Assembly (NCBI GenBank): GCA_964360965.1 | Contig: CAYHYM010000003.1 | Coordinates: forward strand, 1-32,000 | Direction: 5' to 3' | Length of the DNA stretch: 32,000 nucleotides | Source of the DNA: an uncultured Gammaproteobacteria bacterium | Lineage (GTDB): Bacteria > Patescibacteriota > Microgenomatia > Daviesbacterales > UBA10151 | Shown: one piece after another, positions 3,554 to 30,521 of the stretch | Layout of the letters: every line of letters begins with the position of its first letter | How positions within the stretch are numbered: position 1 is the stretch's first letter | Program-made: the position numbers and the translations under genes | The notes under the pieces: model-generated | Seen by the model: only the letters and a program-made list of their open reading frames with translations | What the model was told of the DNA's origin: nothing | Databases searched by the model: none

Positions 3554-3589
3554 GCGCCCATTTTACCAAACTGGAAACAAAGCGTATGG

Positions 3590-3633
3590 ACACCCTTGGG
3601 GTGTATTCGTATTGACACCTGCGGATATTTGAG
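3590..3633 (+). repeat. left 44-nt repeat (ACACCC-ttg-GGGTGT hairpin followed by TTGACA)
   Basis: acacccttggggtgtattcgtattgacacctgcggatatttgag. TTGACA, then 17 nt, then TATGCT lies just upstream of the transposase ATG, so it is a possible promoter. Confidence 0.75.
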
Positions 3634-3648
3634 ATATGCTAGGCTCAA

Positions 3649-4293: not shown

Positions 4294-4294
4294 T

Positions 4295-4338
4295 ACACCC
4301 TTGGGGTGTATTTGTATTGACACCTGCGGATTTTTGAG
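4295..4338 (+). repeat. right 44-nt repeat (same hairpin, same orientation)
   Basis: acacccttggggtgtatttgtattgacacctgcggatttttgag, starting 2 nt after the transposase stop. 42 of 44 positions are identical to the left copy. Confidence 0.75.
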
Positions 4339-4953: not shown

Positions 4954-7539
4954 TTAACACTTACTATATCCACAGGAGTAGCAGGTTTGGCAGCCTTCTT
5001 CCAGCACAAAAGAAGCAGTACCACACTCTGGACACAAATCCGCAGTGGCAGAAATATGCATCTGTCCCAAGGGCATCTTTTCTCCTCCATTACTCTGAGT
5101 TAAGTCTAGGGGTACTTGTTCTGGTGTTTGAGAACTACCATTTAAAGCTAAATCTTCTGCTAAAGCCTTAGCTATAGCATCAGCTAAACTCATCACTCTA
5201 TCTTTACCAAACCCAATTTGAGATGATCCACCAATTCCCTTTAGTTGAGAAACTACCTTTACTGCAATTTCTTTTGAATTTGGCCTAGAGATCCTTAAAG
5301 CCAAAGAGACCAACCTACCAATAGCTTCTGCATCAGCTGATGTATGCATACCAGCCTTACCTATTGTCACAAACACCTCAAACGGGTGATCTTCGCTATC
5401 GCGATTGATTGTAACAAAGGCCTCTCCAACCGGAGTCATCATTTTATAAGTTCTGCCTCTTAAGATTACTGGTCGCTCACCCATAGTATCAGCGCTATTT
5501 GTTTCTGTCTTAATTTCTCCGTTAGTAAGAGTTCCAGTTGAAAAATTAGTCCCTACGGCCAGCTGATCATAATAAGAATTATCTTTTTTAACCTCCAAGA
5601 CCTGCTTTTCCCGGGATCCATCCCGATAAATGGTAATTCCTTTACAGCCTGTTTCATAAACCATCATATAGGCTCTTCGGACATCTTCTACGGTTGCTTC
5701 ATGGGCAAAATTAATGGTTTTAGAGATGGCATTATCCACATGTTTTTGAAAAGCAGCCTGCATTTTAACATGTTCCTCAGGCAAAATATCATGAGCCACC
5801 ACAAATACCTGCTGCCATTTTTCCGGCACCTCACTCAAGCCTTGGACTGATCCGTAATTTTGCTCAATCTTCTCCATCAGTTGTTCCGAATAAAAACCTT
5901 CTGCCTGAGCTATTTGCAAAAATATCGGGTTAGTATTAAAAAGCCTTTTCCCTTCAATGGTATTTTTGGCGAAAGACAGACCAAAATACGGTTCAATTCC
6001 GGATGAGGCATCAGCCAGCATGGAGATGGTACCGGTTGGGGCTATGGTGGTCACAGCCCCGTTTCTAATTTTTAGGTTTTGTCCTAAAAAGTAGGGGCTT
6101 TTGGGATCAAAAATTGATCCACTCCAGGCCGGGAAAACTCCTCTTTCCCTGGCCAGATCTAAGCTTGCTATCTTGGCTGCCTTTTGAATACAGTCCATTA
6201 TATCCTCTGCCACCTGTAAACCCTTATCTGTGTTATAACCCACCCCCAGCTTAAACAGGGCATCGGCAAATCCCATCACCCCCAAACCTATTCTTCTAAT
6301 ATTTCTGGTTGTTTGGGCAATTTCTTCTACCGGGTAATTATTCATATCCAAAACATTGTCCAAAAAGTGAACTGACTGCCTGGTTACCTCTTCCAAACCC
6401 GCATAATCAATCTGGCCATCTGTGACAAACTTACCCACATTGATAGACCCCAAGGTACAAGCATCATACGGTAACAGGGGCTGTTCCCCACAGGGATTAG
6501 TAGCCTCAATCATGCCAATTTGAGGAGTGGGGTTGGCCCCTGATTTATTAATCCGATCAATCATAATCATACCTGGATCACCATAGTGCCAGGCCAGCTG
6601 GGTGATAAGCAAAAATACCTTTTTGGCATTTAATCTACCAGTCACCTGACCGGTTCTGGGATTAATTAACTCATATCCTTCATCCTTATGCCTCGCCCGG
6701 ACCAGATCATATAATTTGGCCACCCCATCCTCTACCTTTTTTAGCTTCAAATCAATATCACGGATGGCTTGAGCAGCCTTTATTTCCTTCACAATCTCTT
6801 CCCAATCCGGCTCACTTAAAACGTATCTGCTATCCTTTTTCACCTGTTCCATCCACTCCTCAGTGACAGTGACCGAGATATTAAAATTAGTCAGGGAAAA
6901 TTCATCTACCTTCATCACTGCAAAACGCAAAATATCCGGATGAGTAATATATAAAATACCCATATTGGCGCCGCGCCTGACCCCTCCCTGTTTAATCTGA
7001 GAAGTCACATCATTATAAGCTTGCAAAAATGAACATGGCCCCACTGTTTTACCGCCAGAGGAAGAAATCACATCTCCAAAAGGACGCAGTCTGGAGAAAG
7101 AAAATCCAGTGCCGCCGCCGGATTTGTGAATCATTACCATATCCACCATGGTTTTGGCAATTGATTTCATATCATCTTCAATAGGCAGCACAAAACAGGC
7201 GGACAGCTGCTGCATTCTCTTACCTGCATTAAGCATGGTGGGGGTGTTGGGAACAAACTGCTGACAGGACATGATTTTATAAAACTGTCTGGCTAAATCT
7301 GTAACTTCTTTTTTACCTTCACCATAAAACAGATCAGCTGATGCAATGTTATAGGCCACTCTCCAAAACATCTCTTTGGCATCCTCAACTGGCTCGCCTT
7401 TTTCATCGCGAAAAGCGTAACGGGTTCTGCCAACATATAAAGCATTTTCAGAAAGCTCAGGCTCCGTCAAATCTAGCGGTGCAGTGGGAATTTGTTGGCC
7501 AATTTTCCAGACATCTGCTAATTTATATTTCTTTTTCAT
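4954..7539 (-). CDS. nrdJ: adenosylcobalamin-dependent (class II) ribonucleotide reductase
   Basis: 861 aa. RNR barrel motifs (NPCGEQPL, TIAPTGT), no ATP-cone, and a C-terminal CxxC...CxxC tail (CPECG...CQTCYSCG). It overlaps nrdR by 4 nt. Confidence 0.9.
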   Translation of the reverse strand: MKKKYKLADVWKIGQQIPTAPLDLTEPELSENALYVGRTRYAFRDEKGEPVEDAKEMFWRVAYNIASADLFYGEGKKEVTDLARQFYKIMSCQQFVPNTPTMLNAGKRMQQLSACFVLPIEDDMKSIAKTMVDMVMIHKSGGGTGFSFSRLRPFGDVISSSGGKTVGPCSFLQAYNDVTSQIKQGGVRRGANMGILYITHPDILRFAVMKVDEFSLTNFNISVTVTEEWMEQVKKDSRYVLSEPDWEEIVKEIKAAQAIRDIDLKLKKVEDGVAKLYDLVRARHKDEGYELINPRTGQVTGRLNAKKVFLLITQLAWHYGDPGMIMIDRINKSGANPTPQIGMIEATNPCGEQPLLPYDACTLGSINVGKFVTDGQIDYAGLEEVTRQSVHFLDNVLDMNNYPVEEIAQTTRNIRRIGLGVMGFADALFKLGVGYNTDKGLQVAEDIMDCIQKAAKIASLDLARERGVFPAWSGSIFDPKSPYFLGQNLKIRNGAVTTIAPTGTISMLADASSGIEPYFGLSFAKNTIEGKRLFNTNPIFLQIAQAEGFYSEQLMEKIEQNYGSVQGLSEVPEKWQQVFVVAHDILPEEHVKMQAAFQKHVDNAISKTINFAHEATVEDVRRAYMMVYETGCKGITIYRDGSREKQVLEVKKDNSYYDQLAVGTNFSTGTLTNGEIKTETNSADTMGERPVILRGRTYKMMTPVGEAFVTINRDSEDHPFEVFVTIGKAGMHTSADAEAIGRLVSLALRISRPNSKEIAVKVVSQLKGIGGSSQIGFGKDRVMSLADAIAKALAEDLALNGSSQTPEQVPLDLTQSNGGEKMPLGQMHISATADLCPECGTASFVLEEGCQTCYSCGYSKC

Positions 7540-8070: not shown

Positions 8071-10962
8071 GTGAAATTGCTGCCCCTTTTAATTTTTCTA
8101 TTCACTTTTATTACGCTTCCCTCCCCAATCTATGCTGTCACCATTGCTGAGCAAACCCAAAACTTTGGAAATCAGCTAAATGTCTGGCAGGCAATTCAAG
8201 AGCTGGGCAGCTTGCTTGATGGCAAGGCCGGTTCCTTTACTTTCAGGGTACGTACCACTAAGACCAACCTTGAAATGTTTGATTATACTGCTCAAAATAC
8301 CAAGATTTATGATAAGGACACAAACACCAAAGTTGCCAACGGCTGCCACACAGGTTCTGCCTCTGATCCTTTGGGTGGCTTGACCTTTACCACAGCCGGG
8401 GTACCTGTTGGTTTTGAAGACGTGACAATTGATTTTTCATCCTGTAACTCTTACTCCTTCACTCAAGGACATAAATATTTAATTATTATAAGTAATGCCA
8501 ATATGGCACAATTTGGTGGAAGTTTAATCTATTTTGCAGCCGCTGCTTACGGGTCAAGCAGCACTGACCATTTTAATGGTGGGGGTTTAAGGTATGCTTT
8601 TGATAATAAATTTTGCAACCCAATCACTTACCAATGGAATTCTTCAATAAGTAATGCAAATGAAGACCAATGTAATATTTGGACCACACCCAAAGATGAC
8701 CTTTATTTTATTTTAGCCAACACCTCCCCTCCTCCCAAAACCCCGGTTATTTTTATACCCGGGATAGGGGGGTCTGAATTTAAAGCAGGGCAGGATATTA
8801 TCTGGGCAGATCAGGATGATGGACATGGAGGAAAGTTTTCTCATGCTTATACATCTGGGGAGAAAATTTGGGTCAATGAGGGTAAGGCGGCCGAACTGGG
8901 GGAGGATGATTATTTTGATGTATTAAGATTAAAATCTGATGGAGTAACTTCTGAGGCTTCTCTAAGTTTAACAGGAGATCTGACTTCTTTTGGTTATGGG
9001 GATATTGATTCATTTTTTACCGGATTGGGGTATGAGAAAGGTAAAAATTTCTTTGTTTTTCCCTATGATTGGAGAAAGGATGTGAGAGTTACCAAAGATA
9101 GTTTGGATGCCTTAATTGAGGAGGCAAAAACCAAATCAGGACAAACTAAGGTTAATCTAGTGGCCCATTCCATGGGAGGCTTGGTAGCCAGATATTATAT
9201 TGCTGATTCAGGGAGAGCTTCTAAGGTTAATAAGCTAATTTCTATGGGAGTTCCCCATTTGGGAGCAACAAAAGCTTTGAAAACCCTAATGTATGGAGAT
9301 GAAATAAAGAAGGATGTATTTGGTATATTTGCACTAGGAATCCCATCAAGTGAGGTCAAAGACGTATTCCAAAATCTCCCCAGCGCATTCCAGCTTTTAC
9401 CTTCCAAAAAATTTTATGATTTCTATGACAACTCTGCTCAGAAACCTTTCCCGTTTAGCGACGAAAGAGATATTGACAGTAACAAAGTTACTGGAGCACT
9501 AAACTTTATTCAAATCAAAGGATTGCTGGAAAATTTAATACACAATATGACAGTATTTGACTTTGGAGAACAACTTCATAATTTAGCTGATCCATTACTT
9601 AATCAATCTTCAACAGTCAAGTTGTATAACATAGCTGGTACCAGCCAACCTACTTTAGGACAAATCAGGGAAACGTGGTTAATACAGTGGCCTATTAATT
9701 TAATCTCTATAAGAGACGAGGTCTTTATTAACGGAGACAATACAGTGCCGCTCTATAGTGCCTCACTTAAAAGTGATTCTTTAGATTTTTCAGGCAGTGC
9801 AACTATTTATTATGTGGAACAAAAACACAGTGATCTGGTTTCAAAAGATGGCACAGCTATGCAAACAGTAAAGTCTATTTTAGAAGAATCTGATTTACCT
9901 GTTGAGGTTAAATCCGAAAAGATTGATTTGGAAGGACAGCATGTGTCTTTGGATGATGGGGAATTGGAATTGTATGATGATGAAGGAAAACATACTGGCA
10001 TAAAAGATGACGGAGAAATTGAAACCAATATTCCTGAAACTTTTTATTCAACATCAGGTAAAACTAAACATGCTTTTGTTAAAAAGAAAGCTAAAAAAGT
10101 GAAAGTGAGGGCTACTCGAAAAAAGAAAACCTCATCAGATCCCAAAACAACCAATCTAAAAATTAGAAGTTATAAACAGGATAAGGTTTCTAAAACCACA
10201 ATTTATAGAGATGTCTTAATTGCTGAAACAGCCAAAGTTGAATTTGATCTGGATCCAGCAATTGATACTTCTCCAACCCTTGCATTATTTCCTGATTCCA
10301 CCAAATCTGACAGCACAAATATTAATCTCACTAGTGAGGTATCAGGTGGTCCTGCCTTAGACCAAACATCACCTTCTACAAAGATAGAACTATCAGGAAG
10401 TAAAGATTCATTAGGCAAGTTTATATCCTCTGCCACAGTAACCTTAAGTTCCTCTGATTCTGAATCGGGAATTTTAAAAACAGAATATAGTTTGGATAAT
10501 GGTAAGACTGTTCAAACGTACAGTAATCCATTCACTGTCTCAACTCCTGGTAAAACTACTTTACAGGTAAAGTCTATTGATAAATTAGGTAATGAGGAAA
10601 TACCACAAGAAAAGGTCATAGAGATTGCTTCATCAACTTCTAGCTCATCTTCTTCCAGCTCATCTGGCAATAACTCATCAAGCACTGCACAATCCACCTC
10701 TGAGGAGTCCGTTCCGGTCACCTCCGAGGTGTTACGAAGTGACTCCTCGGAGGTGGATAGCACAAGCTCATCACAAGATATCCTGGGACTTAGCACCCAA
10801 AATCCAGTTTCATCTGCTCAATTAAAACCTCTAACTAACAACCAACCTAATCTACTAACAAGCAGTATGTTGATCTTAACAATGTTTATGGCCCAAAGCG
10901 GAATAATTCTTTTGTCATCCTTAAGATCAGTTCTTTCTTTTCTTAAACCAACCCCAAAATAG
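8071..10962 (+). CDS. secreted, C-terminally anchored LCAT/PGAP1-like alpha/beta-hydrolase (lipase/acyltransferase) with Ig-like and Ser-rich regions
   Basis: 963 aa with a GTG start. Signal peptide MKLLPLLIFLFTFITLPSPIYA. PVIFIPGIGGSEF oxyanion region, nucleophile elbow AHSMGG, and later NGDNTVP and KHSD (putative Asp and His). A poly-Ser tract and a terminal hydrophobic helix follow. Confidence 0.7.
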   Translation: MKLLPLLIFLFTFITLPSPIYAVTIAEQTQNFGNQLNVWQAIQELGSLLDGKAGSFTFRVRTTKTNLEMFDYTAQNTKIYDKDTNTKVANGCHTGSASDPLGGLTFTTAGVPVGFEDVTIDFSSCNSYSFTQGHKYLIIISNANMAQFGGSLIYFAAAAYGSSSTDHFNGGGLRYAFDNKFCNPITYQWNSSISNANEDQCNIWTTPKDDLYFILANTSPPPKTPVIFIPGIGGSEFKAGQDIIWADQDDGHGGKFSHAYTSGEKIWVNEGKAAELGEDDYFDVLRLKSDGVTSEASLSLTGDLTSFGYGDIDSFFTGLGYEKGKNFFVFPYDWRKDVRVTKDSLDALIEEAKTKSGQTKVNLVAHSMGGLVARYYIADSGRASKVNKLISMGVPHLGATKALKTLMYGDEIKKDVFGIFALGIPSSEVKDVFQNLPSAFQLLPSKKFYDFYDNSAQKPFPFSDERDIDSNKVTGALNFIQIKGLLENLIHNMTVFDFGEQLHNLADPLLNQSSTVKLYNIAGTSQPTLGQIRETWLIQWPINLISIRDEVFINGDNTVPLYSASLKSDSLDFSGSATIYYVEQKHSDLVSKDGTAMQTVKSILEESDLPVEVKSEKIDLEGQHVSLDDGELELYDDEGKHTGIKDDGEIETNIPETFYSTSGKTKHAFVKKKAKKVKVRATRKKKTSSDPKTTNLKIRSYKQDKVSKTTIYRDVLIAETAKVEFDLDPAIDTSPTLALFPDSTKSDSTNINLTSEVSGGPALDQTSPSTKIELSGSKDSLGKFISSATVTLSSSDSESGILKTEYSLDNGKTVQTYSNPFTVSTPGKTTLQVKSIDKLGNEEIPQEKVIEIASSTSSSSSSSSSGNNSSSTAQSTSEESVPVTSEVLRSDSSEVDSTSSSQDILGLSTQNPVSSAQLKPLTNNQPNLLTSSMLILTMFMAQSGIILLSSLRSVLSFLKPTPK

Positions 10963-11202
10963 ATGGATAATCCAAAACCAGAAAGTAATGTTTATTAGGT
11001 ATACTAACAATATTTTTATCTTTTCATAATGCTGCAAACATAATGCAACTGGGTATCCTGTAACTGTACACGAACTACCTAAAAGCGAGAAACCTTGTGG
11101 CCAATAGCTAGAATTAAAAAGTTGTATAAAATTACTTACCACCCATACCAATATACTTATACCCAAAGTAACAAAAAATCTTTTTTTAGAAAATCCCCAC
11201 AT
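10927..11202 (-). CDS. small hypothetical membrane protein
   Basis: 91 aa with 2-3 predicted hydrophobic helices. Its 3' end overlaps the convergent lipase gene by 36 nt. No recognisable family. Confidence 0.4.
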   Translation of the reverse strand: MWGFSKKRFFVTLGISILVWVVSNFIQLFNSSYWPQGFSLLGSSCTVTGYPVALCLQHYEKIKILLVYLINITFWFWIIHLFWGWFKKRKN

Positions 11203-13890: not shown

Positions 13891-13895
13891 ATTAT

Positions 13896-13920
13896 GTCAT
13901 TCTGAGCGCAGCGAAGAATC
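13896..13920 (+). repeat. GTCAT / CTGAGC...CGAAG hairpin-type repeat copy
   Basis: gtcattctgagcgcagcgaagaatc. It shares CTGAGC-N4-CGAAG with the copies at 18834, 24436 and 28136, and shares GTCAT...GCGCAG...ATC with the hairpin at 29311. It encodes the last codons and the stop (SSLRSE*) of the upstream ORF. Confidence 0.6.
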
Positions 13921-14535
13921 TAACTTTTCTATTAGTTCCCCCTTCTCCACTGACACCTGGTAAAAATTACAAAGCTTATTAGTTTTTTCTTTAGGTTTAT
14001 CTAGTTCAATAATGATACAATCCCCGGGTGGAACTTGTGGATGAGGTGAGAGTATATGGGAAGCAGGATCAGCTAATTTTTTCTGATGAAAATTACTGCC
14101 AGAAGTTTGATATACAAAAACCTGTAACTCCCCTGGTAAACCATTACATATCACACCACTTTCTAAACTAACCACTCCATTATTAGTAGGCGCAACCAAT
14201 GAACTTGCAGTCATTCTTCCACCTATCACTTTAAAAAATTCACCCAAACTAATATCTTTATACTCTATCACCGGTCCCTCAACATGAATCCTATTATCAT
14301 TATGCTCATGTAGAATTGGTGTGCCAATTTTGTTAGATAATCCCTTGGGGTCTATTAAGTCCACTTTGTTTCCGCAGTTCCAAATTCCAAAATCAGCATG
14401 CCAGTGAACAGGACCACCAGTAACAGAGGTTTGGTTTGTGGAGATGGTTGACCAAACAAGATAAGCTGTAATTCCCAAAACCAGCAAAACAATTGTAAGA
14501 AATAAAAAATATTTTAAAATTTCTCTTTTTTCCAT
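13897..14535 (-). CDS. hypothetical membrane-anchored exported protein with Cys/His motifs
   Basis: The ORF track gives 13897-14604. I prefer the internal ATG at 14535 (MEKREILKYFLFL...), because the longer form overlaps the divergent ATPase start. One N-terminal TM helix, HWHADFGIWNCG and LHEHNDNRIHVEG motifs, and 4 Cys. Confidence 0.55.
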   Translation of the reverse strand: MEKREILKYFLFLTIVLLVLGITAYLVWSTISTNQTSVTGGPVHWHADFGIWNCGNKVDLIDPKGLSNKIGTPILHEHNDNRIHVEGPVIEYKDISLGEFFKVIGGRMTASSLVAPTNNGVVSLESGVICNGLPGELQVFVYQTSGSNFHQKKLADPASHILSPHPQVPPGDCIIIELDKPKEKTNKLCNFYQVSVEKGELIEKLDSSLRSE

Positions 14536-14585: not shown

Positions 14586-17189
14586 GTGGAAAAGGCATAT
14601 ACAAAAACCGCTGAGCAAGTTATTAAAGATCTAAAAACTGATCTTAAAGACGGGCTGACATCAGCCCAAGCCCAAAAAAGATTAGCACAATATGGCCCAA
14701 ATGTCTTAAAAGAAGAGATCGGTAAAAATCCTTTGCTGATTTTATTTTCCCAGTTCAGAAGCTTTTTGGTGATTATTTTAATAGTTGCCTCCATCATCTC
14801 ATATCTGTTGGGTCATAGCCTTGACGCCTTGATGATTTTGGCCATTGTCGCAATTAATGCTGTCTTAGGCTTTATTCAAGAATATCGGGCAGAGGAATCC
14901 ATCAAACATCTGAAAAAACTGGTCACTGCCAATGTCCAGGTGATCAGAGATGGCCGGTTAGTAGAGATTCCCCACTTTCAACTGGTACCAGGAGATTTGG
15001 TAATTGTAAGTGACGGCCAAAAAGTCCCGGCTGATTTAAGAGTAACACAATCCATCTATCTGCACCTTAATGAAGCACCACTGACCGGAGAATCAATTCC
15101 TGTCACCAAAGTAACAGACAGCTTACCCCCCAACACCAACATAGCTGATCAAAAAAATATGCTTTTTGCAGGCACCTCAGTCTCTTCTGGCAAGGGTATG
15201 GGGATAGTTGTATCAACAGCTATGAAAACAGAAATTGGCCAAATTGCCCATCTGGTATCACAAGAGGTGGAACCAGAAACCCCCCTCAAACAAAAGCTGG
15301 ATCGTTTGGGCAAACTTTTGGGCAGAATTGTTTTAATCGTCGCCTCCTTAATTGCCCTGGAACAAATAATATTGGGTGAACCAGTTATTGAAGCTCTCAT
15401 CTCATCAGTGGCCTTGGCAGTAGCAGCCATACCAGAAGGCTTGCCTGCCATTGTCACCATCTCTTTGGCTTTGGGCACCAAAAGGCTTCTTAAACAACGT
15501 GCCTTAATCAGAAATTTGCCTGCCTCAGAAACCTTAGGATCAACAGAGGTAATATGTGTAGACAAAACTGGCACCCTAACAGAAGGAGAAATGTCTGTGA
15601 GAGAGATTTACGGCGCAAATATTCAAAAAATTCTCACTGTGGGGATACTTTCAAGCAATGCCAGAAAAAATAAAGACAGAATTATTGGAGATGCCACTGA
15701 GGCAGCTTTAATACAAAAGGCCATAGATTCAGGACTGGATCAGGATCAATTGGATAAAAAATTTCCTCGAGTACAAGAAATACCCTTTTCTTCAGACAGA
15801 AAAATGATGACCACCATCTGCAAAGAGGATAATCAATACCGGGTGACCAGCAAAGGTGCAACCGAAGTCATCTTGGACAAATGTTCACATATTGAGGAGA
15901 ATGGCCAGGTTATACCATTAACTGAGGAGAAAAAAGAACAGATTTTAAAAGTTAATGACCAAATGGCCCAAGATGCCTTGAGGATTTTGGCTTTTGCCGA
16001 GAAGCGCATACACCTTGCAGGTGAAGAAAATGCAGTTACACCTGCGAGGTGGAAAGAAGAAGAGATAGAAAAAGATCTGATCTTTCTAGGCCTTCAGGGA
16101 ATGATGGATCCACCAAGGGAAGGTGTTAAAGAGGCTATTGAGGTTTGTCAAAGAAAAGCAGGAATTAAAGTAATAATGATCACCGGAGATCACCTGTTAA
16201 CTGCCCAATCCATTGCCAAAGAAATTGGTATCAAGGGGGAGAGCATCAGCGGTCAAGAGCTTGACAATCTTTCTGAAGAAGAATTTGTCAAAAAAGTTCA
16301 GGAAATTAACATCTATGCCAGGGTCAGCCCCACTCATAAAATTAGGATCATCAAGGCCCTAAAAGCCCGCGGTCATCAGGTGGCCATGACAGGTGATGGG
16401 GTCAATGATGCTCCGGCCTTAAAGGCTGCTGATACTGGGGTGGCCATGGGGGTTACGGGCACCGACGTGGCCAAAGATGCCTCAGATATAATTTTACTGG
16501 ATGATAATTTCACCACCATTGTGCAAGCCATAAAAGAAGGAAGGACAATTTTTGACAACATCAGAAAATTTGTTAATTACCTGTTATCTTCAAACATTAT
16601 GGAAATAATGGTGATATCTTTGGCTGTAATTTTGGGTGGGGGACATTTGCCGCTTTTACCTATTCATCTTTTATGGATCAATCTGGTCACTGATGGGCTG
16701 CCGGCCCTGGCTTTGGGAGTTGATCCGCCCAGAGCAGACATCATGAGTTTACCGCCCCAAAATTTTAGGCAGCAGATATTGGGTGGTAGATCTTTAGGGC
16801 CTTTAACTGCCGTCAGTGTACTTTTAACCATAGCTATCCTTGCTATTTTCTTTATCTATCAAAAAGATCCAATTTATGAACAAACCATGGTTTTTACATC
16901 CATTGTCTTTTATGAAATGTTAAGAATTATTGCCATAAGGTCTGAATATAAACTGCCGTTTTTCTCAAATAAATTCTTAATCCTTGCTATAGCTGGATCA
17001 TTAGCACTGCATCTTGTGATTCTTTATCTACCATTCTCTTTTGCAGGAGTAACATTGCAAGAATTATTTAAAGTTCAGCCGTTAAATCTTTTTGACTGGG
17101 TACTACTGCTTGGAATTGGCATCTTCCTTCTATTTATCATGAGAATCTTGGTCATTACACCTGTATTTAATTTTTTAAAAAAGCCTTGA
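14586..17189 (+). CDS. cation-transporting P-type ATPase, type II (Ca2+/PacL-like)
   Basis: 867 aa with a GTG start. N-terminal cation-ATPase domain (GLTSAQAQKRLAQYGPN), DKTGTLT, TGD, MTGDGVNDAPALK and 10-TM topology. Confidence 0.9.
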   Translation: MEKAYTKTAEQVIKDLKTDLKDGLTSAQAQKRLAQYGPNVLKEEIGKNPLLILFSQFRSFLVIILIVASIISYLLGHSLDALMILAIVAINAVLGFIQEYRAEESIKHLKKLVTANVQVIRDGRLVEIPHFQLVPGDLVIVSDGQKVPADLRVTQSIYLHLNEAPLTGESIPVTKVTDSLPPNTNIADQKNMLFAGTSVSSGKGMGIVVSTAMKTEIGQIAHLVSQEVEPETPLKQKLDRLGKLLGRIVLIVASLIALEQIILGEPVIEALISSVALAVAAIPEGLPAIVTISLALGTKRLLKQRALIRNLPASETLGSTEVICVDKTGTLTEGEMSVREIYGANIQKILTVGILSSNARKNKDRIIGDATEAALIQKAIDSGLDQDQLDKKFPRVQEIPFSSDRKMMTTICKEDNQYRVTSKGATEVILDKCSHIEENGQVIPLTEEKKEQILKVNDQMAQDALRILAFAEKRIHLAGEENAVTPARWKEEEIEKDLIFLGLQGMMDPPREGVKEAIEVCQRKAGIKVIMITGDHLLTAQSIAKEIGIKGESISGQELDNLSEEEFVKKVQEINIYARVSPTHKIRIIKALKARGHQVAMTGDGVNDAPALKAADTGVAMGVTGTDVAKDASDIILLDDNFTTIVQAIKEGRTIFDNIRKFVNYLLSSNIMEIMVISLAVILGGGHLPLLPIHLLWINLVTDGLPALALGVDPPRADIMSLPPQNFRQQILGGRSLGPLTAVSVLLTIAILAIFFIYQKDPIYEQTMVFTSIVFYEMLRIIAIRSEYKLPFFSNKFLILAIAGSLALHLVILYLPFSFAGVTLQELFKVQPLNLFDWVLLLGIGIFLLFIMRILVITPVFNFLKKP

Positions 17190-17582: not shown

Positions 17583-18140
17583 CTAAATCACTTTAGCCAC
17601 TGATGCAATCATTAAAATTCCCACAGAGTTTGAGATATAGGATATTAAAATAAATCTTGCCTCGGACATTTTGGAAATTCCCAAAAGGGATACTCCCAGC
17701 TCATCAGGCAGTGGCGAGGCAATTATAAATACACCTATTATGGGAAGAGTCCAAGCAATATATTTTGAATGAAGTAAAGCTTTTATATGCGATGTTTCTT
17801 GCTTGCCAAAAAGTATAGCCAACTCCTCTTGCAGACGACTCCTTACCAACTTAAAAACCAGATAGTCTCCCCAAACCGCTCCCACACCACCAATCAAAGC
17901 AATTGCCATGGGATGTAAATTTTGAGTCATGATGGCAATAACTACTGTTGAGATGGCCACAGTGAATGAGGAAACAAAAAGCATCCCGGCAATTAAAGCT
18001 CCAATATATTCCAAGGATCCTAACCCTAAAAGCCAGTTTTTAAAGGCTTCATTTTGTGCCAATATTATGGCCAATAGAATACTTATTAAAACAGCAGTCA
18101 AATACGGATATCTCCACTTTTTCCAGAAATTAGGCACCAT
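17583..18140 (-). CDS. integral membrane protein, possibly DedA/VTT-like
   Basis: 185 aa with 4-5 TM helices. GAVWGDYLVFKLVR and SPLPDELG resemble VTT/DedA motifs (weak). The start overlaps the upstream gene by 11 nt. Confidence 0.5.
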   Translation of the reverse strand: MVPNFWKKWRYPYLTAVLISILLAIILAQNEAFKNWLLGLGSLEYIGALIAGMLFVSSFTVAISTVVIAIMTQNLHPMAIALIGGVGAVWGDYLVFKLVRSRLQEELAILFGKQETSHIKALLHSKYIAWTLPIIGVFIIASPLPDELGVSLLGISKMSEARFILISYISNSVGILMIASVAKVI

Positions 18141-19185
18141 GGTGTGCCTCCGCAGCCGGGCTTTGTTTTTTCCGCTTCAATAAATAATTATATGCAGCCA
18201 AGGCAGCCCTTACCCCATCACCTGCAGAAATATTATTTTGTTTATAAGGATCATTGGTGACGTCCCCACAAGCAAAAACCCCGGGATGGGAGGTGGTGGC
18301 ATGTTGAAAATTCACCATGATTTGTCCATGGTCATCAATTTGTACCAAATCTTTAACCATCTCAGAGTTAGGAACTGAGCCTATTTCCACAAATATCCCG
18401 CCCACTTCCAAAGTCTTTTCTTCTGCACTTCCACTCCCGATGTGGGATTGAGCTGACACATCGGGAGTGTGTATTCGGTATTTGAGCCCGGTTACCAATG
18501 CTTCCCCCACCACTTCCACAGTTTGGGCATTAAGAATAATTTGTCTAAGTTTGGGGTTTTTCTTGATTTCCTCAATAGTTGCCGGATCAGCTCTTAAGAT
18601 CTCACCCCTCTCCATCAGGTAAATTTCTGATGCATAGGGAAAAAGGTCCTGTACTGCCTCGAGTCCGGCATTTCCTCCACCAACAACTGCCACCTTTTTA
18701 TCGCGAAAAAGGGGAGCATCGCATGTTGAGCAATATACCACACCCCTACCTTCAAACTTATCCTCCCCTGGAATGCCTAGTTTCCTACGTCTGGCACCTG
18801 AGGCCACAATGACGGTTTTCCCCTGATATACTTGTCCTGAGCCTGTCGAAGGATCTGTAGTCACCTCAAAATCACAGATCCTCCCAGCAGACACCTCGGA
18901 TGGTGTGGACTCAGTAGACCTGCATGCAACAGATTTTACCTTCACCACCTTTTCTGTTTTTATATCAACAATATCTGGATAAGCTCTAACATGAGCTTCC
19001 AGTTTTTTAGCTAAATTGAGTCCAGAAATATGTACCTCTCCTATCCAGTTTTGAATATCATCTGAGACAATTGACTGCCCGCCAAAAGATTCTGTAATAA
19101 GGAGAGTTTTCATCTGCTTTCTTGCCGCATAAACAGCAGCAGCACAAGCTGCAGGTCCTCCACCAATGATAATTACGTCATACAT
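18130..19185 (-). CDS. trxB: FAD-dependent pyridine nucleotide-disulfide oxidoreductase, thioredoxin reductase / AhpF C-terminal-like
   Basis: 351 aa. GGGPAACAAAVYAAR FAD motif, FGGQ...IQNWIG, redox CSTCDAPLF (AhpF-like CxxCDGPLF), VVGGGNAGLEA NAD motif and GVFACGDV. It carries two in-frame repeat insertions. Confidence 0.8.
   Translation of the reverse strand: MYDVIIIGGGPAACAAAVYAARKQMKTLLITESFGGQSIVSDDIQNWIGEVHISGLNLAKKLEAHVRAYPDIVDIKTEKVVKVKSVACRSTESTPSEVSAGRICDFEVTTDPSTGSGQVYQGKTVIVASGARRRKLGIPGEDKFEGRGVVYCSTCDAPLFRDKKVAVVGGGNAGLEAVQDLFPYASEIYLMERGEILRADPATIEEIKKNPKLRQIILNAQTVEVVGEALVTGLKYRIHTPDVSAQSHIGSGSAEEKTLEVGGIFVEIGSVPNSEMVKDLVQIDDHGQIMVNFQHATTSHPGVFACGDVTNDPYKQNNISAGDGVRAALAAYNYLLKRKKQSPAAEAHHGA
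18432..18469 (+). repeat. palindromic element, 13-bp perfect stem and 12-nt loop, intragenic (copy 1)
   Basis: cactcccgatgtg-ggattgagctga-cacatcgggagtg. The arms are identical to the copy at 20519-20556. Confidence 0.85.
18834..18854 (+). repeat. CTGAGC-N4-CGAAG element, intragenic
   Basis: gtc-CTGAGC-ctgt-CGAAG-gat. It is read in frame as PSTGSGQ. Confidence 0.65.
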
Positions 19186-19187
19186 AC

Positions 19188-20147
19188 TTATACCTTAACA
19201 GGAGTAAGTGGAGGTTGTCCAGATAAAACCGCAATTATATTTTTGGCTGCCAATTCTCCCATGGCTGAACGGGCTTCTATTGTTGCAGAAGCAATATGAG
19301 GAGTTAGAATCACATTTTCTAAATCCACCATACCAGCAGCCCATTTAGGTTCTGTTTCACCCACATCTAAAGCTGATCCGGCAATGACTTTATTTTTCAA
19401 GGCTTCGACAAGCTCAGCCTCATCAACCACAGGACCACGGGAAGTATTGACCAGATAGGCCGTGGATTTCATCATCTTCAGATGCTCGGCGTTAATTAAA
19501 TGTCTTGTAGAATCAAGTAGGGGGACGTGAATTGAAACCACATCTGATGTGGAAAGTAGTTCTTCAGGTGTTGCTTTAAAGACTGCTCCCACCTTAGTTT
19601 CAAAATCCGGATTTTGTTTAACATCGTAATAGATCACATTCATACCAAAACTTTTCCCAATCTCAGCCACCCTTGAACCAATCCTGCCGAGTCCTAAAAC
19701 CCCCAAGGTTTTATCTTTAAGTTCCATCCCCAACATGACTTCCGGACCAAACTGCGCAGACTCTGTAAGAGCCAATTTATGGGCTTCAACAACTCTTCTT
19801 GAGATTGCCATTATCAGTGCAAATGTATGTTCAGCAACAGCCTCTGTTAACACATCCGGGGTGTTGGTGACCACAATACTTCGCGACAAAAGGGCGGGGA
19901 GGTCTAAATTATCTGTACCTACAGCGTAATTGGCAACTATTTTTAAATTAGCCCCAGCAGCGTTAATAAACTCCTGATCCACCTTATCAGTCAACATGCT
20001 CAACACCCCATCTGCACCCTGTATAAAATTCAAAAGTTCCTGTCTTTCCAAAGGCCGATCATGTGGTGAAACCACCACTTCATACCCAGCATCCTGCAAC
20101 ATCTTTATCCCACTGCCGGGAATTTTTCTGGTAACTACAACTTTCAT
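19188..20147 (-). CDS. D-isomer-specific 2-hydroxyacid dehydrogenase (glyoxylate/hydroxypyruvate reductase-like)
   Basis: 319 aa. NAD fold GLGRIGSRVAE, catalytic region TPHIASAT, and a strong SD (GGAGGTGG) 6 nt upstream of the ATG. Confidence 0.8.
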   Translation of the reverse strand: MKVVVTRKIPGSGIKMLQDAGYEVVVSPHDRPLERQELLNFIQGADGVLSMLTDKVDQEFINAAGANLKIVANYAVGTDNLDLPALLSRSIVVTNTPDVLTEAVAEHTFALIMAISRRVVEAHKLALTESAQFGPEVMLGMELKDKTLGVLGLGRIGSRVAEIGKSFGMNVIYYDVKQNPDFETKVGAVFKATPEELLSTSDVVSIHVPLLDSTRHLINAEHLKMMKSTAYLVNTSRGPVVDEAELVEALKNKVIAGSALDVGETEPKWAAGMVDLENVILTPHIASATIEARSAMGELAAKNIIAVLSGQPPLTPVKV

Positions 20148-23293: not shown

Positions 23294-25300
23294 CTATATT
23301 TTCACTCTTTTTAATAATAACGAATTAGTAACAACAGATATAGAACTTGTGGCCATAGCAACTGATGCAAAAATCGGATTCAATAGTAAATGAAAGAATG
23401 AATAGAGAATTCCCATAGCAACAGGTATCAGTATAATATTATATCCAAAAGCCCAAAACAGATTCAACTTAATAGTTCTCATGGTTTTTTGGGATAACTC
23501 AACTGCATGAGCTACGGATTTTAAGTCTTTATTGATTAGTGTAATATCAGCAGCTTCTATTGCTACATCCGTACCAGTTCCCATGGCAATGCCTATATCT
23601 GCAGCAGCCAGAGCTGGAGCATCGTTAATCCCATCACCAACCATAGCAACTTTTTTACCCTCTGCCTGAATTTTTTTCACCTCTGCTTCTTTCTGATCTG
23701 GTAAGACTTCTGCCAAAACTCTTTTAATACCCACTTGATCTGCAATAGCGTCAGCAGTCCTCTTATTATCTCCTGTAATCATCACAACTTCTATGCCCAT
23801 TTTTTGCAATGACTGCACACCTTCTCTGGCAGTGTCTTTTAAAGTATCGGCCACAGCAATTAAACCCGCTAATTTTCTATTTGCAGCCAGCATCATTACT
23901 GTCTTACCATCATTTTCAAATTTCTCAATATCTGTGAGATTTTTTTCATAAATCACGTTCTCCCTGTCCATAAGCTTGCGATTTCCCAGGAAAACTTTCT
24001 GGTTGTTAACTACCCCTTCTATCCCAAATCCAGGGATTGCTTTAAAATATTTAACCTTCGGAATAGTCTCACCCTCTATGCCAAGATTTCTTCCATACTC
24101 TAAAATTGCTTCTGCAAGAGAATGTTCTGAAGACTTTTCCAGAGCAACTGCCCGAGAAAGTATTAGCATATCACTGTTATACATTCTATTACCCGTTGTC
24201 TTAATATCTGTAACCACTGGTTTCCCTTTGGTGAGTGTTCCTGTTTTATCAAAAATCACGGTATTTATTTTATGGGCTGTTTCCAAGCTTTCTGCATCTT
24301 TTATTAAAATCCCATGCTCTGCCCCAATCCCTGTTCCCACCATAATAGCTGTGGGAGTAGCCAGACCCATGGCACAAGGGCAGGCAATAATTAAAACTGC
24401 TATGGCATTTAACATGGCAAATAAGAGGGGGACCTGCCCTGAGCTTGTCGAAGGGCCAAACACATACCAACCGACAAATGTGACAATTGCCAGCATAATC
24501 ACAATGGGCACAAAATAAGAGGAAATTAAATCTGCAATCCTTTGGATTGGAGCTTTAGAGCCTTGTGCTTCCTGGACTAACTTAATAATTTGAGCGAGCA
24601 TGGTATCAGAACCTACTTTTGTGGCTTTATAAGTAAAAGTGCCTGATTTATTAATTGTTGCCCCGACAACTATATCTCCTTTAGCTTTATCAACCGGCAT
24701 ACTCTCACCAGTTATCATTGACTCATCTATAGAGGATTCACCTTCAACTATCACTCCATCTACTGGAATTTTCTCACCAGGTCTGACTCTGATTACATTA
24801 CCAACCACAACCTGATCAATAGGTATATCTTTTTCCTGACCATCAACTAGAACCCTGGCAGTTTTAGCTTGTAATCCAATTAATTTTTTAATAGCTTCAG
24901 AAGTTCCAGCTTTGGCTTTGGCCTCAAAATAACGGCCAAGCAAAATCAAACCGATAATAATTGTGGAAACATCAAAATACGGTTCCGGTTTGATGCCAAT
25001 ATTTTCCATCACTTGAGGAAAAATAGTCACAAAGGCGGAATAGGAAAAAGCCACACTAGTACCAATGGCAACCAGTGTGTCCATATTGGCAGTACGATGA
25101 CGCAGTGCAGGCAGTGTTGCTTGATAAAATTCCCATCCTGCCCAAAATTGAACTGGGGTGGCCAAAAGCAGTTGTACCCAGAAGTTTTGTAAAATAGTTG
25201 GGGAAGTTACCATTAATCCTGGAAAAGAACCCCATAAAATCAGTCCACCTAAAACCAAACTTATTACCACTTTAATTTGTAAATCCTTCTCTCTGTTCAT
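23294..25300 (-). CDS. copA: copper-translocating P1B-type ATPase (no N-terminal HMA domain)
   Basis: 668 aa. CPC motif ([13 protein letters not shown]), DKTGTLT, MITGDN and [11 protein letters not shown]. Confidence 0.9.
24436..24456 (+). repeat. CTGAGC-N4-CGAAG element, intragenic
   Basis: gcc-CTGAGC-ttgt-CGAAG-ggc. It is read in frame as PSTSSGQ, just upstream of the CPC helix. Confidence 0.65.
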
Positions 25301-27755: not shown

Positions 27756-28778
27756 TTATTTATCCTTCATGCGCAAGACCGCAGTCACAGCTTTAATAAT
27801 AGCCTCTTTGCCCAAGCCAAATTTTTCCATTAGTTCACTGGGTTCTCCACTTTCTCCAAACCTATCTTCCACCCCTACTCTTTTAATTGGTACTGGATAA
27901 TTTTCAGACAAAACTTCTGCTACTGCCCCACCTAAACCACCAATTATTTGGTGTTCTTCAACTGTTACTATTGCCCCACAATCTTTTGCAGCTTGTAGGA
28001 TCGTCTTTTTATCCAAAGGTTTTAAGGTGTGGGAATTTATTACTCGAACACTTATTTTGTGCGATTCTAGCTCTTTTGCAGCCAATAGAGCCTGATAAAC
28101 TAAAGGCCCACAGGCGATTAGACAAACATCTAATCGTCCTGAGCGAACATCGTGAGTCGAGGGACCACCATCCCAGAGTACTTCAGCCCTACCTATCTCA
28201 AATGGCGAATCCTCTGTGGTGAATACAGGTGTTTTTTCTCTAGTAAATCTAAGATAAGTAGGCTTACCATTAAATGCTGCAGCAAGGGTGGCTTTCTTGG
28301 CTTCAATGCTATCACAAGGGGCAATCACCATTATATTAGGCACAGCCCGCATGATGGCCATGTCTTCCAGTTGTTGATGAGTAGCCCCATCAGGACCAAC
28401 AGAAATCCCGGCATGGGCTCCGGCAATCTTAACCGGCACATCGTTTATAGCAATGGTGGTTCTGATCTGTTCCCAATTTCTGCCTGGTGAGAAAGCAGCA
28501 TATGATGAGATAAAAGGAATTTTGCCATAATTGGCCATTCCTGCTGCCACTGTAGCCATCATTTGCTCTGCCACCCCAACTTCAATAAAACGATCAGGGA
28601 ATTTTTCTTTAAAAAGAATAGACCTGGTAGACTCTGTTAAATCCGCACATAAAACCACTACCCTTTCATCCCTCTCTCCAGCCAAGACTAATCCCTCCCC
28701 ATACCCTTCCCTGGTCGGTATTTGTTCAATATCCTGATCAAATATTTTTGGATTAAGATGAGCGTTTTTGTTTACCAT
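27756..28778 (-). CDS. tkt: transketolase, C-terminal half (pyrimidine-binding and C-terminal domains)
   Basis: 340 aa. FIEVGVAEQMM motif, DGATHQ, and the size typical of split transketolase subunit B. It contains an in-frame repeat insertion. Confidence 0.9.
   Translation of the reverse strand: MVNKNAHLNPKIFDQDIEQIPTREGYGEGLVLAGERDERVVVLCADLTESTRSILFKEKFPDRFIEVGVAEQMMATVAAGMANYGKIPFISSYAAFSPGRNWEQIRTTIAINDVPVKIAGAHAGISVGPDGATHQQLEDMAIMRAVPNIMVIAPCDSIEAKKATLAAAFNGKPTYLRFTREKTPVFTTEDSPFEIGRAEVLWDGGPSTHDVRSGRLDVCLIACGPLVYQALLAAKELESHKISVRVINSHTLKPLDKKTILQAAKDCGAIVTVEEHQIIGGLGGAVAEVLSENYPVPIKRVGVEDRFGESGEPSELMEKFGLGKEAIIKAVTAVLRMKDK
28136..28165 (+). repeat. CTGAGC-N13-CGAGG element (long-loop variant), intragenic
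   Basis: gtc-CTGAGC-gaacatcgtgagt-CGAGG-gac. It is read in frame as PSTHDVRSGR. Confidence 0.6.
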
Positions 28779-28781
28779 ATT

Positions 28782-29288
28782 TTATCCCCACATATCTTTT
28801 AAAGCTGGAAATCTCTCAATATTTAATAAATCCATTAAAGCCAAGTTCCACCCAGTGTGTAATATCTCATGATCATTTAACCCATAAAGCATGGTAACTG
28901 CTGAAACTGGTTCTTGACTCCAAGGAACTATAATAAGTTTGTTTGCAATATCATCATTAGAAAGTTCCTCTATCAGTTTTTTATCCAATTCCTGAAGTCT
29001 TTGTAATGCTTCTTCTCTGCTTAATGATTTAAGGTTTTTATCATCACCAGAAACAAATTCTAATTTGCCGGTCTCCAATGCAATTACATAATCTCTCTCA
29101 GCTCCAATTTGATGACCCAAACTTTCCCTTATGGAGTCAGCTTTTCTGTCTGGATTATCAACCATTCTAAAATCTAGTTTATCTTCCGGAACTCTTTTAT
29201 AGAATTCAATATTAATATTTCTATTGGTCAGAAACTGTGTAAGAAAACTTTTTACTTTAGAATTAGTAATTTTTTTAATTTCATCCAT
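28782..29288 (-). CDS. DinB-superfamily (DinB_2-like) four-helix-bundle protein
   Basis: 168 aa. His residues spaced as in DinB (LGHQIGAERDY ... NDHEILHTGW). The stop lies 3 nt before the tkt C-half start. Confidence 0.5.
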   Translation of the reverse strand: MDEIKKITNSKVKSFLTQFLTNRNINIEFYKRVPEDKLDFRMVDNPDRKADSIRESLGHQIGAERDYVIALETGKLEFVSGDDKNLKSLSREEALQRLQELDKKLIEELSNDDIANKLIIVPWSQEPVSAVTMLYGLNDHEILHTGWNLALMDLLNIERFPALKDMWG

Positions 29289-29337: not shown

Positions 29338-29622
29338 TTAAATGACCTGACTATATAAATCAGACCATTCTGGATTAAACTTATTAATTAGCTTCATCTT
29401 CCAGTATCTTTTCCATTTCTTCATTTGTTTCTCTCTCAATATAGCATCATTAATATTCTGATGCTGTTCATAATACACCAGTTCATGTACTCCATATTTT
29501 TCAGTAAATCCCTTCACTAAATTATTTTTATGTTCCCAAACCCTTCTTACCAAATTATCTGTTACTCCTATGTAAAAAGTCCCGTTTTTTCCGCTAGCCA
29601 GTATATAAACATAATATTCCAT
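29338..29622 (-). CDS. GIY-YIG (URI-domain) nuclease family protein, UPF0213-like
   Basis: 94 aa. YVYILASGKNGTFYIGVTDNLVRRVWEHK is the classic GIY-X10-YIG...R...E pattern. Confidence 0.85.
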   Translation of the reverse strand: MEYYVYILASGKNGTFYIGVTDNLVRRVWEHKNNLVKGFTEKYGVHELVYYEQHQNINDAILREKQMKKWKRYWKMKLINKFNPEWSDLYSQVI

Positions 29623-29663: not shown

Positions 29664-30521
29664 CTATTCATGTTCGCCTTTGATCTTGCCACCTAGTGTC
29701 CTTAGTTGATGTAGAGCTTTTTTGGCTTCCTCAGGATTTGGTGGCTTGCTATGCCAAGCTGGATTCCACTCCATGAAATCAACTCCTTTTCCTGGAATTG
29801 TGTGAGCAATAATCACAGAAGGTTTACCATATTCAGATTTGGCATGACCCACAGCATCCGTGAACTCCACAATGTTATGACCATCAACATGCAAAACATG
29901 CCAACCAAAAGCCTCATACTTCTCAACCAAAGGCTCAAGCGGCATCACATCTTCTGTATGGCCGTCTATTTGAATATTGTTTCTATCAACTACAACTATT
30001 AAGTTTGACAGTTTGTATTTGCCGGCAAAAAGTACTGCCTCCCAGTGATTACCAGCATCATGCTCCCCATCAGAACAGATACAATAAACCCAAAATCTTT
30101 TTTTATCCATCCTGGCAGCATATGCATAACCTGAAGCTTGGGCAAGGCCAGAGCCTAATGGTCCAGATGTTGTCTCAACTCCAGGCAATTTGGTTCTTTC
30201 AGGATGACCCTGTAACCTAGTTCCAAGTTTTCTGAATGTTTTAAGTTCTTCAATGGGAAAATACCCAGAATGAGCCATGGCCACATACCTGACCGGACAA
30301 ATATGGCCATTGGATAAAAATAATCTATCTCTCTCTTCCCATTCTGGATTTTTTGGATCATGGTTTAAGATATTAAAATAAAAGGCAGTGAAAATATCTG
30401 CCATCCCCAAAGGTCCTGCAGAGTGCCCAGACCCTGCCTCAAGGAGCATCTTGATAATATCCTGGCGAATTTCATTAGCTTTTTCCTCTAACTGGTGGAT
30501 GTCATGACTTAAGATGGACAT
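29664..30521 (-). CDS. tkt: transketolase, N-terminal half (thiamine-diphosphate-binding domain)
   Basis: 285 aa. GSGHSAGPLGMADI, LSNGH and CSDGEHDAGNHWEA (TPP-binding GDG-like motif), typical of split transketolase subunit A. Confidence 0.9.
   Translation of the reverse strand: MSILSHDIHQLEEKANEIRQDIIKMLLEAGSGHSAGPLGMADIFTAFYFNILNHDPKNPEWEERDRLFLSNGHICPVRYVAMAHSGYFPIEELKTFRKLGTRLQGHPERTKLPGVETTSGPLGSGLAQASGYAYAARMDKKRFWVYCICSDGEHDAGNHWEAVLFAGKYKLSNLIVVVDRNNIQIDGHTEDVMPLEPLVEKYEAFGWHVLHVDGHNIVEFTDAVGHAKSEYGKPSVIIAHTIPGKGVDFMEWNPAWHSKPPNPEEAKKALHQLRTLGGKIKGEHE

Follow-up and report, generated by a model that had tools for sequence, protein, structure and literature searches.

The 32-kb window analysed here (the whole stretch of DNA, 32,000 nucleotides) contains five copies of a short palindromic element built on CTGAGC and CGAAG or CGAGG half-sites, four inside protein-coding genes and one at a gene junction. 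The element is probably a hairpin-forming DNA repeat of approximately 21-33 nt of the repetitive extragenic palindrome (REP) type, with the architecture of the CGTC-tagged REPs, which would be selfish or neutral and tolerated where it falls in protein loops. The nearest relatives of the P-type ATPase gene copA in the window belong to Microgenomates/Daviesbacteria, and the window therefore comes from a bacterium of the candidate phyla radiation (CPR); the CopA protein is present on a Hainich groundwater contig from the 0.1 µm filter fraction.

A search for CTGAGC-N4..13-CGARG returned five matches in the window, which has a G+C content of 39.7%, compared with 0.07 expected from dinucleotide shuffles (none of 100 reached five and the largest count was one). 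The repeat is thus not due to chance, as the original prediction had proposed. That prediction listed four plus-strand copies, all of which lie where it had placed them, the positions it quoted being the first base of the flanking triplet; it had missed a fifth, on the minus strand at 19403-19417. The copA copy (24436-24456, core 24439-24453) has the sequence gcc-CTGAGC-TTGT-CGAAG-ggc, is antisense in copA (23294-25300, minus strand) and is read as (P)STSSG(Q). In the gene for an AhpF/thioredoxin-reductase-like protein (18130-19185, minus strand) the antisense copy at 18833-18854 (core 18837-18851), TGTC-CTGAGC-CTGT-CGAAG-GAT, encodes PSTGSGQ. The gene-junction copy at 13895-13922 (core 13902-13916), TGTC-ATT-CTGAGC-GCAG-CGAAG-AAT-CTA, is read as SSLRSE followed by a stop. 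A long-loop variant at 28134-28166 (core 28139-28162), T-CGTC-CTGAGC-(13-nt inner loop)-CGAGG-GAC-C, is antisense in the gene for the transketolase C-half (tkt-C, 27756-28778, minus strand). The fifth copy, at 19400-19420 on the minus strand, agg-CTGAGC-TTGT-CGAAG-cct, is in sense orientation in a D-2-hydroxyacid (glycerate) dehydrogenase gene (19188-20147, minus strand), where it encodes (E)AELVEA(L); its 15-nt core is identical to that of the copA copy. The 3-nt flanking triplets are complementary in all five copies, including a G.T pair in the 18837 copy.

A covariance model made from 149 distinct family copies placed these five at the top of its matches in the window, with no other credible one, and neither this model nor relaxed patterns revealed further degenerate copies there. 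The tkt-C copy scored just 10.6 bits, which makes its membership of the family less certain. A 9-bit match at 14646-14673 was dismissed as an unrelated GGGCTGA/TCAGCCC hairpin.

The evidence for structure comes from the family as a whole. Among the 149 copies, flank pair 1 was paired in 144 (CG 92, GC 41), flank pair 2 in 136 (CG 54, GC 38, UA 35) and flank pair 3 in 94, many of these being G.U. The resulting covariation score was 0.367 as against 0.155 for shuffles (0 of 500 reached it), and every slid register used as a control scored lower. The compensatory covariation of the flanks that had been proposed from the window copies therefore holds for the family. The consensus is CCGYTC-RNN-CTGAGC-YTGT-CGAAG-N'N'Y, with T in 92 and C in 101 of 155 copies at positions -5 and -4, respectively, and the 33-nt consensus folds stably (-20.6 kcal/mol, z -5.1). 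A full unit comprises a 5' tag (CCGYTC, TGTC, CGTC or CCTC), a stem of eight positions, a 5-nt loop (C + N4, mostly CYTGT) and a 3-nt tail. The stem consists of two to three free covarying pairs followed by the constant CTGAG/CGAAG block, that is C-G, T-A, a tandem G.A/A.G in a 5'-Py-GA-Pu-3' context, and G-C; written as a DNA oligonucleotide the hairpin is d(GCCCTGAGCTTGTCGAAGGGC). G.T is approximately twice as frequent as A.C on the CTGAGC strand, which suggests that this is the strand that folds. Nearest-neighbour folding of the individual window copies, as RNA or DNA and on either strand, was indistinguishable from shuffles (z approximately -1.6 to +0.5), so the structural evidence is the family-wide covariation and not local stability. 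The earlier description of a structured element thus stands as regards palindromy and covariation; the element is neither peculiar to this genome nor evidently a dedicated structured RNA, belonging as it does to a pan-bacterial REP-like family.

To follow the family outside the window we scanned viral contigs and one genome per GTDB species with the 15-mer CTGAGCYTGTCGAAG; the distribution given here rests on the matches listed. Among these, genome matches covered at least 15 bacterial phyla. The hosts included Chloroflexota, Bacteroidota, alpha-, beta- and gamma-Proteobacteria, Myxococcota, Desulfobacterota, Actinomycetota, Cyanobacteria, Nitrospirota, Planctomycetota, Acidobacteriota, NC10, Armatimonadota, Marinimicrobia and Calditrichota, as well as the CPR lineages Staskawiczbacteria and Saccharibacteria. 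In proteobacterial plasmids and chromids the 15-mer was always located in intergenic DNA without annotation, at as many as 16 sites in one record, and it also occurred in viral contigs. Many loci from genomes, plasmids and viral contigs had plus and minus copies paired at a distance of 30-60 nt (L125, L133, L134, L139, L154 and L218 among them; L-numbers label the loci compared), and the region downstream of htpG in Sphingobium has two copies arranged as an inverted dimer. No inverted dimers were present in the 32-kb window. The ATT type, with ATT..AAT stems, carried TGTC 17 times and CGTC 5 times, with the tail CTC in 17 copies; viral-contig copies with GAAG or GCAG loops likewise combined TGTC or CGTC, an ATT..AAT or ATC..GAT stem and CTC. 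Tandem arrays or partial duplications of the left (CCTGAGCYTGYC) or right (TCGAAGG) half of the element were seen at L131 4440-6620 (Microbacterium mangrovi), L141, L156 and L229, a pattern that suggests slippage-like expansion within the hairpin.

In copA the element had been proposed to be an in-frame addition immediately before the CPC helix, and this was borne out by comparison with the 119 closest orthologues (73-80% identity, Microgenomates/Daviesbacteria). In 115 of these the protein reads WYxFG-4 residues-LF, lacking the five residues by which the window copA is longer. A PDB alignment placed a 6-residue gap in Archaeoglobus fulgidus CopA exactly at the element, and the empty sites in L448 and L449 read TTT GGA CCC TCT CCT GCT TTC. 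The boundaries of the insert are ambiguous (15 nt gained, or 18 nt gained and 3 lost), because native Pro-Ser codons could supply CGAAGG. Judged by these alignments, the copA copy is a genuine in-frame insertion. It is located in the loop that connects core membrane helices three and four (M3-M4), which would be extracytoplasmic according to P-type ATPase topology. None of the outcomes that the original prediction had named as contradicting it was seen, neither a copy number at chance level with no complementarity in the flanks of further copies nor conservation of PSTSSGQ in copA of unrelated taxa.

In three other Microgenomates this copA loop holds small, GC-rich palindromic inserts that are unrelated to the element: L122 at approximately 5730-5790, L123 at approximately 2290-2350 and L124 at approximately 11095-11140 (coordinates computed from residue positions). 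That of L124 is an inverted copy of neighbouring native codons, suggesting an origin by fold-back synthesis. The window CopA (668 aa) also has no N-terminal HMA metal-binding domain, which most close orthologues (approximately 730-770 aa) possess; a separate 72-residue HMA protein is encoded near copA according to the gene calls of L121.

The tkt-C copy contributes 33 nt, equivalent to 11 extra residues (GPSTHDVRSGR), and an 11-residue gap occurs at this position both in the split transketolase of C. hydrogenoformans, for which a structure has been solved, and in the Microgenomates orthologue in L122. A DinB_2 gene (28782-29288, minus strand) and a gene with a GIY-YIG nuclease domain (29338-29622, minus strand) separate the transketolase N-half (29664-30521) from the C-half. 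As the two halves adjoin or overlap in the relatives L122 and L449, this intervening stretch is possibly a mobile insertion.

The copy in the AhpF-like gene adds five residues and is present in 5 of 120 orthologues. The window, L246 and L248 share an identical 21-nt insert at the same codon, and the site is empty in L249. L247 encodes the identical peptide with four synonymous changes that have destroyed the DNA motif, showing that an inserted element can evolve as ordinary coding sequence. In a rough neighbour-joining tree the five proteins with the insert were dispersed among 82 of the 120 sequences; this is suggestive only, and would be compatible with several insertions at one favoured site, with precise loss on more than one occasion or with recombination. 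Two further variable spots were noted in the same gene. At 18433-18469 (minus strand) a second in-frame palindromic insert has a perfect 13-bp stem, CACTCCCGATGTG ... CACATCGGGAGTG, around an 11-nt loop and codes for TPDVSAQSHIGSG; it falls in a stretch of approximately nine residues that is missing from E. coli AhpF in a PDB alignment. The third spot, at 18868-18930 (minus strand), codes for STESTPSEVSAGR and contains CTGAGTCCACACCATCCGAGG. Orthologues have between 0 and approximately 25 extra residues there, rich in (T/P)SEVS(A/S) motifs; L253, P0260 and P0279 read SHPERAERVEGPI instead, which in L253 is encoded by a sense-orientation CTGAGC...CGAAG copy.

The gene-junction copy is the most complete in the window, with a tag, a stem starting with A-T, a short loop and a tail in the pattern of the ATT-type viral-contig copies. 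It is placed between two co-directional minus-strand genes, where the open reading frame (ORF) 13897-14535 takes its final seven codons (DSSLRSE) and its TGA stop from the copy, which ends 4 nt before the ATG of the next gene (13890). Orthologues of this ORF in L249 and L246 end in different, unrelated tails.

The loci fetched for comparison numbered 447 (3.8 Mb), of which approximately 360 had been chosen for containing the element. Other Microgenomates loci held more copies, both intergenic and intragenic and in both orientations, and related genomes differed in density, with between 0 and 5 copies in 11-32 kb. Four of the five window copies are antisense to their minus-strand genes and are read in one phase (PSTSSGQ, PSTGSGQ, PSTHDVRSGR and SSLRSE-stop), as the original prediction had noted for the copies it listed. 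That uniformity does not extend to relatives, whose intragenic copies use all five stop-free frames (PST..SGQ, LRQAQG, PFDNAQG, LSRVEG/PERAERVEG and AELVEA), nor does the antisense bias. The best reading of the common frame in the window is thus a tolerance filter, through which a small, polar translation survives. GC skew was considered as a guide to replication orientation and set aside, since it follows gene orientation and thus does not distinguish replication from transcription. As a general feature, these Microgenomates genomes appear to contain in-frame palindromes. Within the window, three closely spaced CCTC-N-GAGG palindromes at 10697-10753 (plus strand, in ORF 8071-10962) encode STSEES..VTSEV..DSSEV in a Ser/Thr-rich segment of a large alpha/beta-hydrolase-like protein, and may represent another small palindromic repeat family.

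On the REP-type reading, copies would arise by insertion of selfish DNA, possibly also by conversion from other copies, and the single-stranded hairpin would be recognized by a trans-acting enzyme. Those that survive would be the copies in tolerant surface or loop positions and in a harmless frame, such as the small and polar PSTSSGQ, and they would be translated as loop extensions without a dedicated function for the host gene.

Candidate mobilizing enzymes were sought in the window and in the fetched loci. The window encodes an IS200-like Y1 transposase at 3649-4293 (plus strand; Pfam Y1_Tnp, E 1e-8), with a 42-nt direct repeat on either side (3588-3630 and 4294-4337); the repeats include the hairpin ACACCCTTGGGGTGT, which is found nowhere else in the window. 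The region 3588-4337 looks like a small IS200-type element, or a REP-associated tyrosine transposase (RAYT) with its own REPs. Since it is flanked by a different hairpin, a link between the element and this transposase was rejected; the Y1 genes found are flanked by other hairpins (ACACCCTTGGGGTGT, GTAGGGTCGGACCC). A phmmer scan of the 3.8 Mb of fetched loci, whose sensitivity is limited by its use of only two query proteins, gave just two Y1-like ORFs, one in L246 with unrelated hairpin flanks and a weak match in L158. The L246 gene (6660-7318) is flanked by (GTA)GGGTC-N-GACCC hairpins, with two in-frame copies inside its own ORF that each code for GSDP; the arrangement resembles that of a GTAG-type REP and the RAYT belonging to it, here in a CPR genome. 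In L448 (6304-9596) a gene for a 137-residue Y1 transposase is situated between two UPF0182 gene fragments, as if an IS200-like element had split UPF0182, and an unrelated CGCAGC/GCTGCG hairpin occurs near it on one side only.

Several observations weigh against a simple tolerated insertion of CGTC-type DNA. No mobilizing enzyme tied to the element was identified in the window or the fetched loci. This agrees with the lack of one published for CGTC REPs, and the mechanism of spread given above is accordingly conjectural. The four intragenic window copies are shorter than a full unit and three of them have no clean unpaired tag. The inner CTGAG/CGAAG block contains a tandem G.A mismatch, whereas the supplement to the survey that defined CGTC REPs (PMC3733652) gives fully paired inner stems of the VIPAKAGI/SFPRKRES type; neither the core nor its peptides appear in the supplements to that survey. 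The dehydrogenase copy leaves the length of the protein unchanged, and EAELVEALK or xALVEALK is native helix sequence in all 120 orthologues. All five orthologues with AELVEA carry an identical 20-mer while neighbouring synonymous sites vary, and ALVEA orthologues use varied codons; the six element codons are identical in all five lineages, compared with 21% of background codons (P ~9e-5; a metagenome scan with the dehydrogenase gave just nine close relatives, which limits the census). In the AhpF-like gene, likewise, all seven element codons are the same in three lineages, compared with 35% of background codons with conserved residues (P ~6e-4). Such codon conservation is not expected from pure neutral decay; it would be consistent with insertions that are recent or recurrent, with conversion from other copies or with a function at the DNA level.

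Two alternatives would accommodate some of these points. In the first, a doubtful possibility, the CTGAG/CGAAG hairpin would be the recognition module of a pan-bacterial, phage-borne machinery that inserts the unit seamlessly and site-specifically, perhaps also excising it, and that could overwrite near-matching native codons. Such a machinery would jointly explain the exact conservation in more than 15 phyla, the presence of an identical insert at one AhpF-like codon in four or more separated lineages, the conserved element codons and the length-neutral dehydrogenase copy. The second, which we consider slightly less probable again, is a functional or driven site at the DNA level, bound or processed by a host or phage protein or resembling an uptake signal, and kept by selection or biased gene conversion, partly via point changes. 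It keeps appreciable weight owing to the codon conservation in the AhpF-like gene and the dehydrogenase, the shared 20-mer in a copy that involves no insertion or deletion, and a distant native dehydrogenase orthologue in L258, which reads GCGCTTGTCGAAGCG, only two substitutions from the motif; nucleotide conservation of the 15-mer across many phyla would also be unusual for REPs. However, clear insertions of 15-33 nt exist, density differs widely among related genomes and there is no known partner protein. The motif has also decayed in L247 and L251, which argues against an absolute nucleotide constraint.

A hairpin acting in the messenger RNA, affecting stability, pausing or processing within coding regions, is improbable. 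The stem covaries with frequent G.U at the third pair, and many REPs are argued in the text of the 2013 survey (PMC3733652) to be transcribed. However, four of the five window copies place the complementary strand in the mRNA, where the G.A pairs become C/U mismatches, and the folding energies of both strands equal those of shuffles. Relatives carry intragenic copies in both orientations, and L247 loses the motif synonymously while retaining the peptide. Rfam gave no match in the window at the gathering threshold and, with the limit relaxed to E 10, the element positions gave only an irrelevant 17-bit UCA1 match overlapping the tkt copy; no tRNA or tmRNA genes were found in the window. A hammerhead or k-turn reading of the CUGA...GA segment was dropped, as the hammerhead core positions did not fit, there was no 3-nt bulge and Rfam had no match.

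We regard as still less probable, indeed very unlikely, that the palindromes arise de novo by template switching (fold-back or quasi-palindrome mutagenesis) at loop-coding sites, with the shared core reflecting a mutational bias. The unrelated palindromic inserts in the copA loop of three other Microgenomates, the mirrored insert of L124 and the two additional palindromes in the AhpF-like gene could be products of such a process. But fold-back cannot account for one 15-mer recurring in unrelated genes and across phyla, plasmids and phages, and the copA, tkt and AhpF-like inserts are not mirrors of their flanks. Least credible of all is a selected peptide module, PST(S/G)SGQ serving as a flexible linker or modification site with the DNA likeness secondary: the four listed copies share a frame and L247 preserves the AhpF-like peptide despite DNA decay, but relatives encode unrelated peptides in all five open frames, many copies are intergenic and the insert is missing from nearly all orthologues.

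The copies show REP-type palindromes decorating CPR/Patescibacteria genes in frame, as is known from Rickettsia. This bears on the annotation, alignment and structure prediction of CPR proteins, with 5-11 extra loop residues in CopA, transketolase and the AhpF-like protein, the last being encoded by a single gene that holds three different palindromic inserts. It also describes a REP-like family conserved in nucleotide sequence across much of the bacterial domain and phages, yet without a known mobilizing enzyme. The filled, empty and decayed sites provide concrete loci at which the current mobility of the element can be judged. In-frame genic REP-type palindromes are already known; it is the host lineage, groundwater CPR, that is new or unusual.

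Among known systems, the core has a possible structural analogy in small DNA hairpins. Sheared tandem G.A and GNA mini-hairpins, such as d(GCGAAGC), are said to have been described by Hirao and by Chou and Reid. Both strands of the core fit the 5'-Py-GA-Pu-3' context, and GCGAAGC or GCGCAGC is present in the variants with a GAAG or GCAG loop; the likeness is one of structure only, and the nearest-neighbour models used give G.A pairing no credit. Yeast mitochondrial GC clusters and byp elements are short GC-rich mobile palindromes of an AT-rich genome that can land in coding sequence, byp being skipped by the ribosome. Those systems are organellar and eukaryotic, whereas the inserts described here keep the reading frame, with lengths divisible by three and no stop codons, so that ribosomal bypass need not be invoked.

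The Rickettsia element RPE-1 measures approximately 100-150 bp and is restricted to Rickettsia. Ogata and colleagues reportedly described it in 2000 and 2002 as a selfish palindrome of a small, AT-rich genome that lies in frame in many unrelated genes and, when translated, extends surface loops of the proteins. Our element is alike in behaviour only, with inserts of 15-33 nt and a family found across bacteria. REP and REPIN sequences in general are short imperfect palindromes of high copy number that occur as inverted dimers and are presumed to form single-stranded DNA hairpins for a Y1 transposase of the HUH type, in families that are usually lineage-specific. The GTAG-tagged REP/REPIN-RAYT systems are said to have been characterized by Nunvar in 2010, Bertels and Rainey in 2011 and Messing in 2012. 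Short palindromes, inverted dimers and the presence of Y1_Tnp genes in the window and in relatives are points in common; unlike those systems, the element has no GTAG tag and no RAYT flanked by it, and its family is not lineage-specific.

The closest resemblance is to the CGTC-tagged REPs, one of two REP superfamilies distinguished by Di Nocera, De Gregorio and Rocco (2013, BMC Genomics 14:522, PMC3733652). As described in the text and supplements of that survey, CGTC REPs carry the tag CGTC, TGTC or CCTC, and have stems of 8-9 bp, in most cases with A-T as the starting pair; the loop measures 4-5 nt and the 3-nt tail has the consensus CCA. They occur mostly as head-to-head dimers in five phyla, have no associated transposase, and include in-frame intragenic copies coding for 7-10 residues and copies that overlap ORF ends; Neisseria dRS3 and Rickettsia conorii RPE-4 and RPE-6 are counted among them. 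The window shows TGTC at 13895-13898 and at 18833-18836 and CGTC at 28135-28138, the last two overlapping the stem; the copA copy has CTGCC instead, and the tag most frequent in the family is CCGTTC. The stem here also has eight positions (three free pairs plus CTGAG/CGAAG), two of them G.A. It starts with A-T in the 13902 copy and in the ATT, ATC and ATG subtypes, and with G-C in the commonest subtype. Four window copies have a loop of 5 nt (C + N4) with a closing G-C pair; the tkt copy, whose loop region spans 14 nt, is atypical. The tail is CTC in 17 ATT-type copies and CTA in the 13902 copy, and the YTGT type lacks a CCA consensus. The viral-contig copies with GAAG or GCAG loops also conform to the CGTC description. 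Inverted dimers, in-frame intragenic units, overlap with ORF ends and, in the window and the loci scanned, the lack of a flanked transposase gene are all shared. The alpha-proteobacterial plasmid hosts overlap the host list of the survey, and the R. palustris CGTC-3 peptides given there would back-translate to a CTTGT-like loop as found here. The distribution of the element is far wider than the five phyla named in the survey and includes CPR. Literature searches with the motif strings or encoded peptides (PSTSSGQ, FDKLRA, LSLSKG and others) gave nothing relevant, PMC8120847 being an unrelated nanoparticle paper, and those for in-frame palindromes in CPR or follow-ups on CGTC REPs gave nothing beyond PMC3733652. 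We file the element under the CGTC kind because the architecture is shared, the differences lying in the inner block, the CCGTTC tag and the wider distribution. Set against the text and supplements of the survey, it is a member or a new sub-family of the CGTC-tagged REPs and not a new class of structured element, and the gene-junction copy at 13895-13922 matches their description feature by feature.

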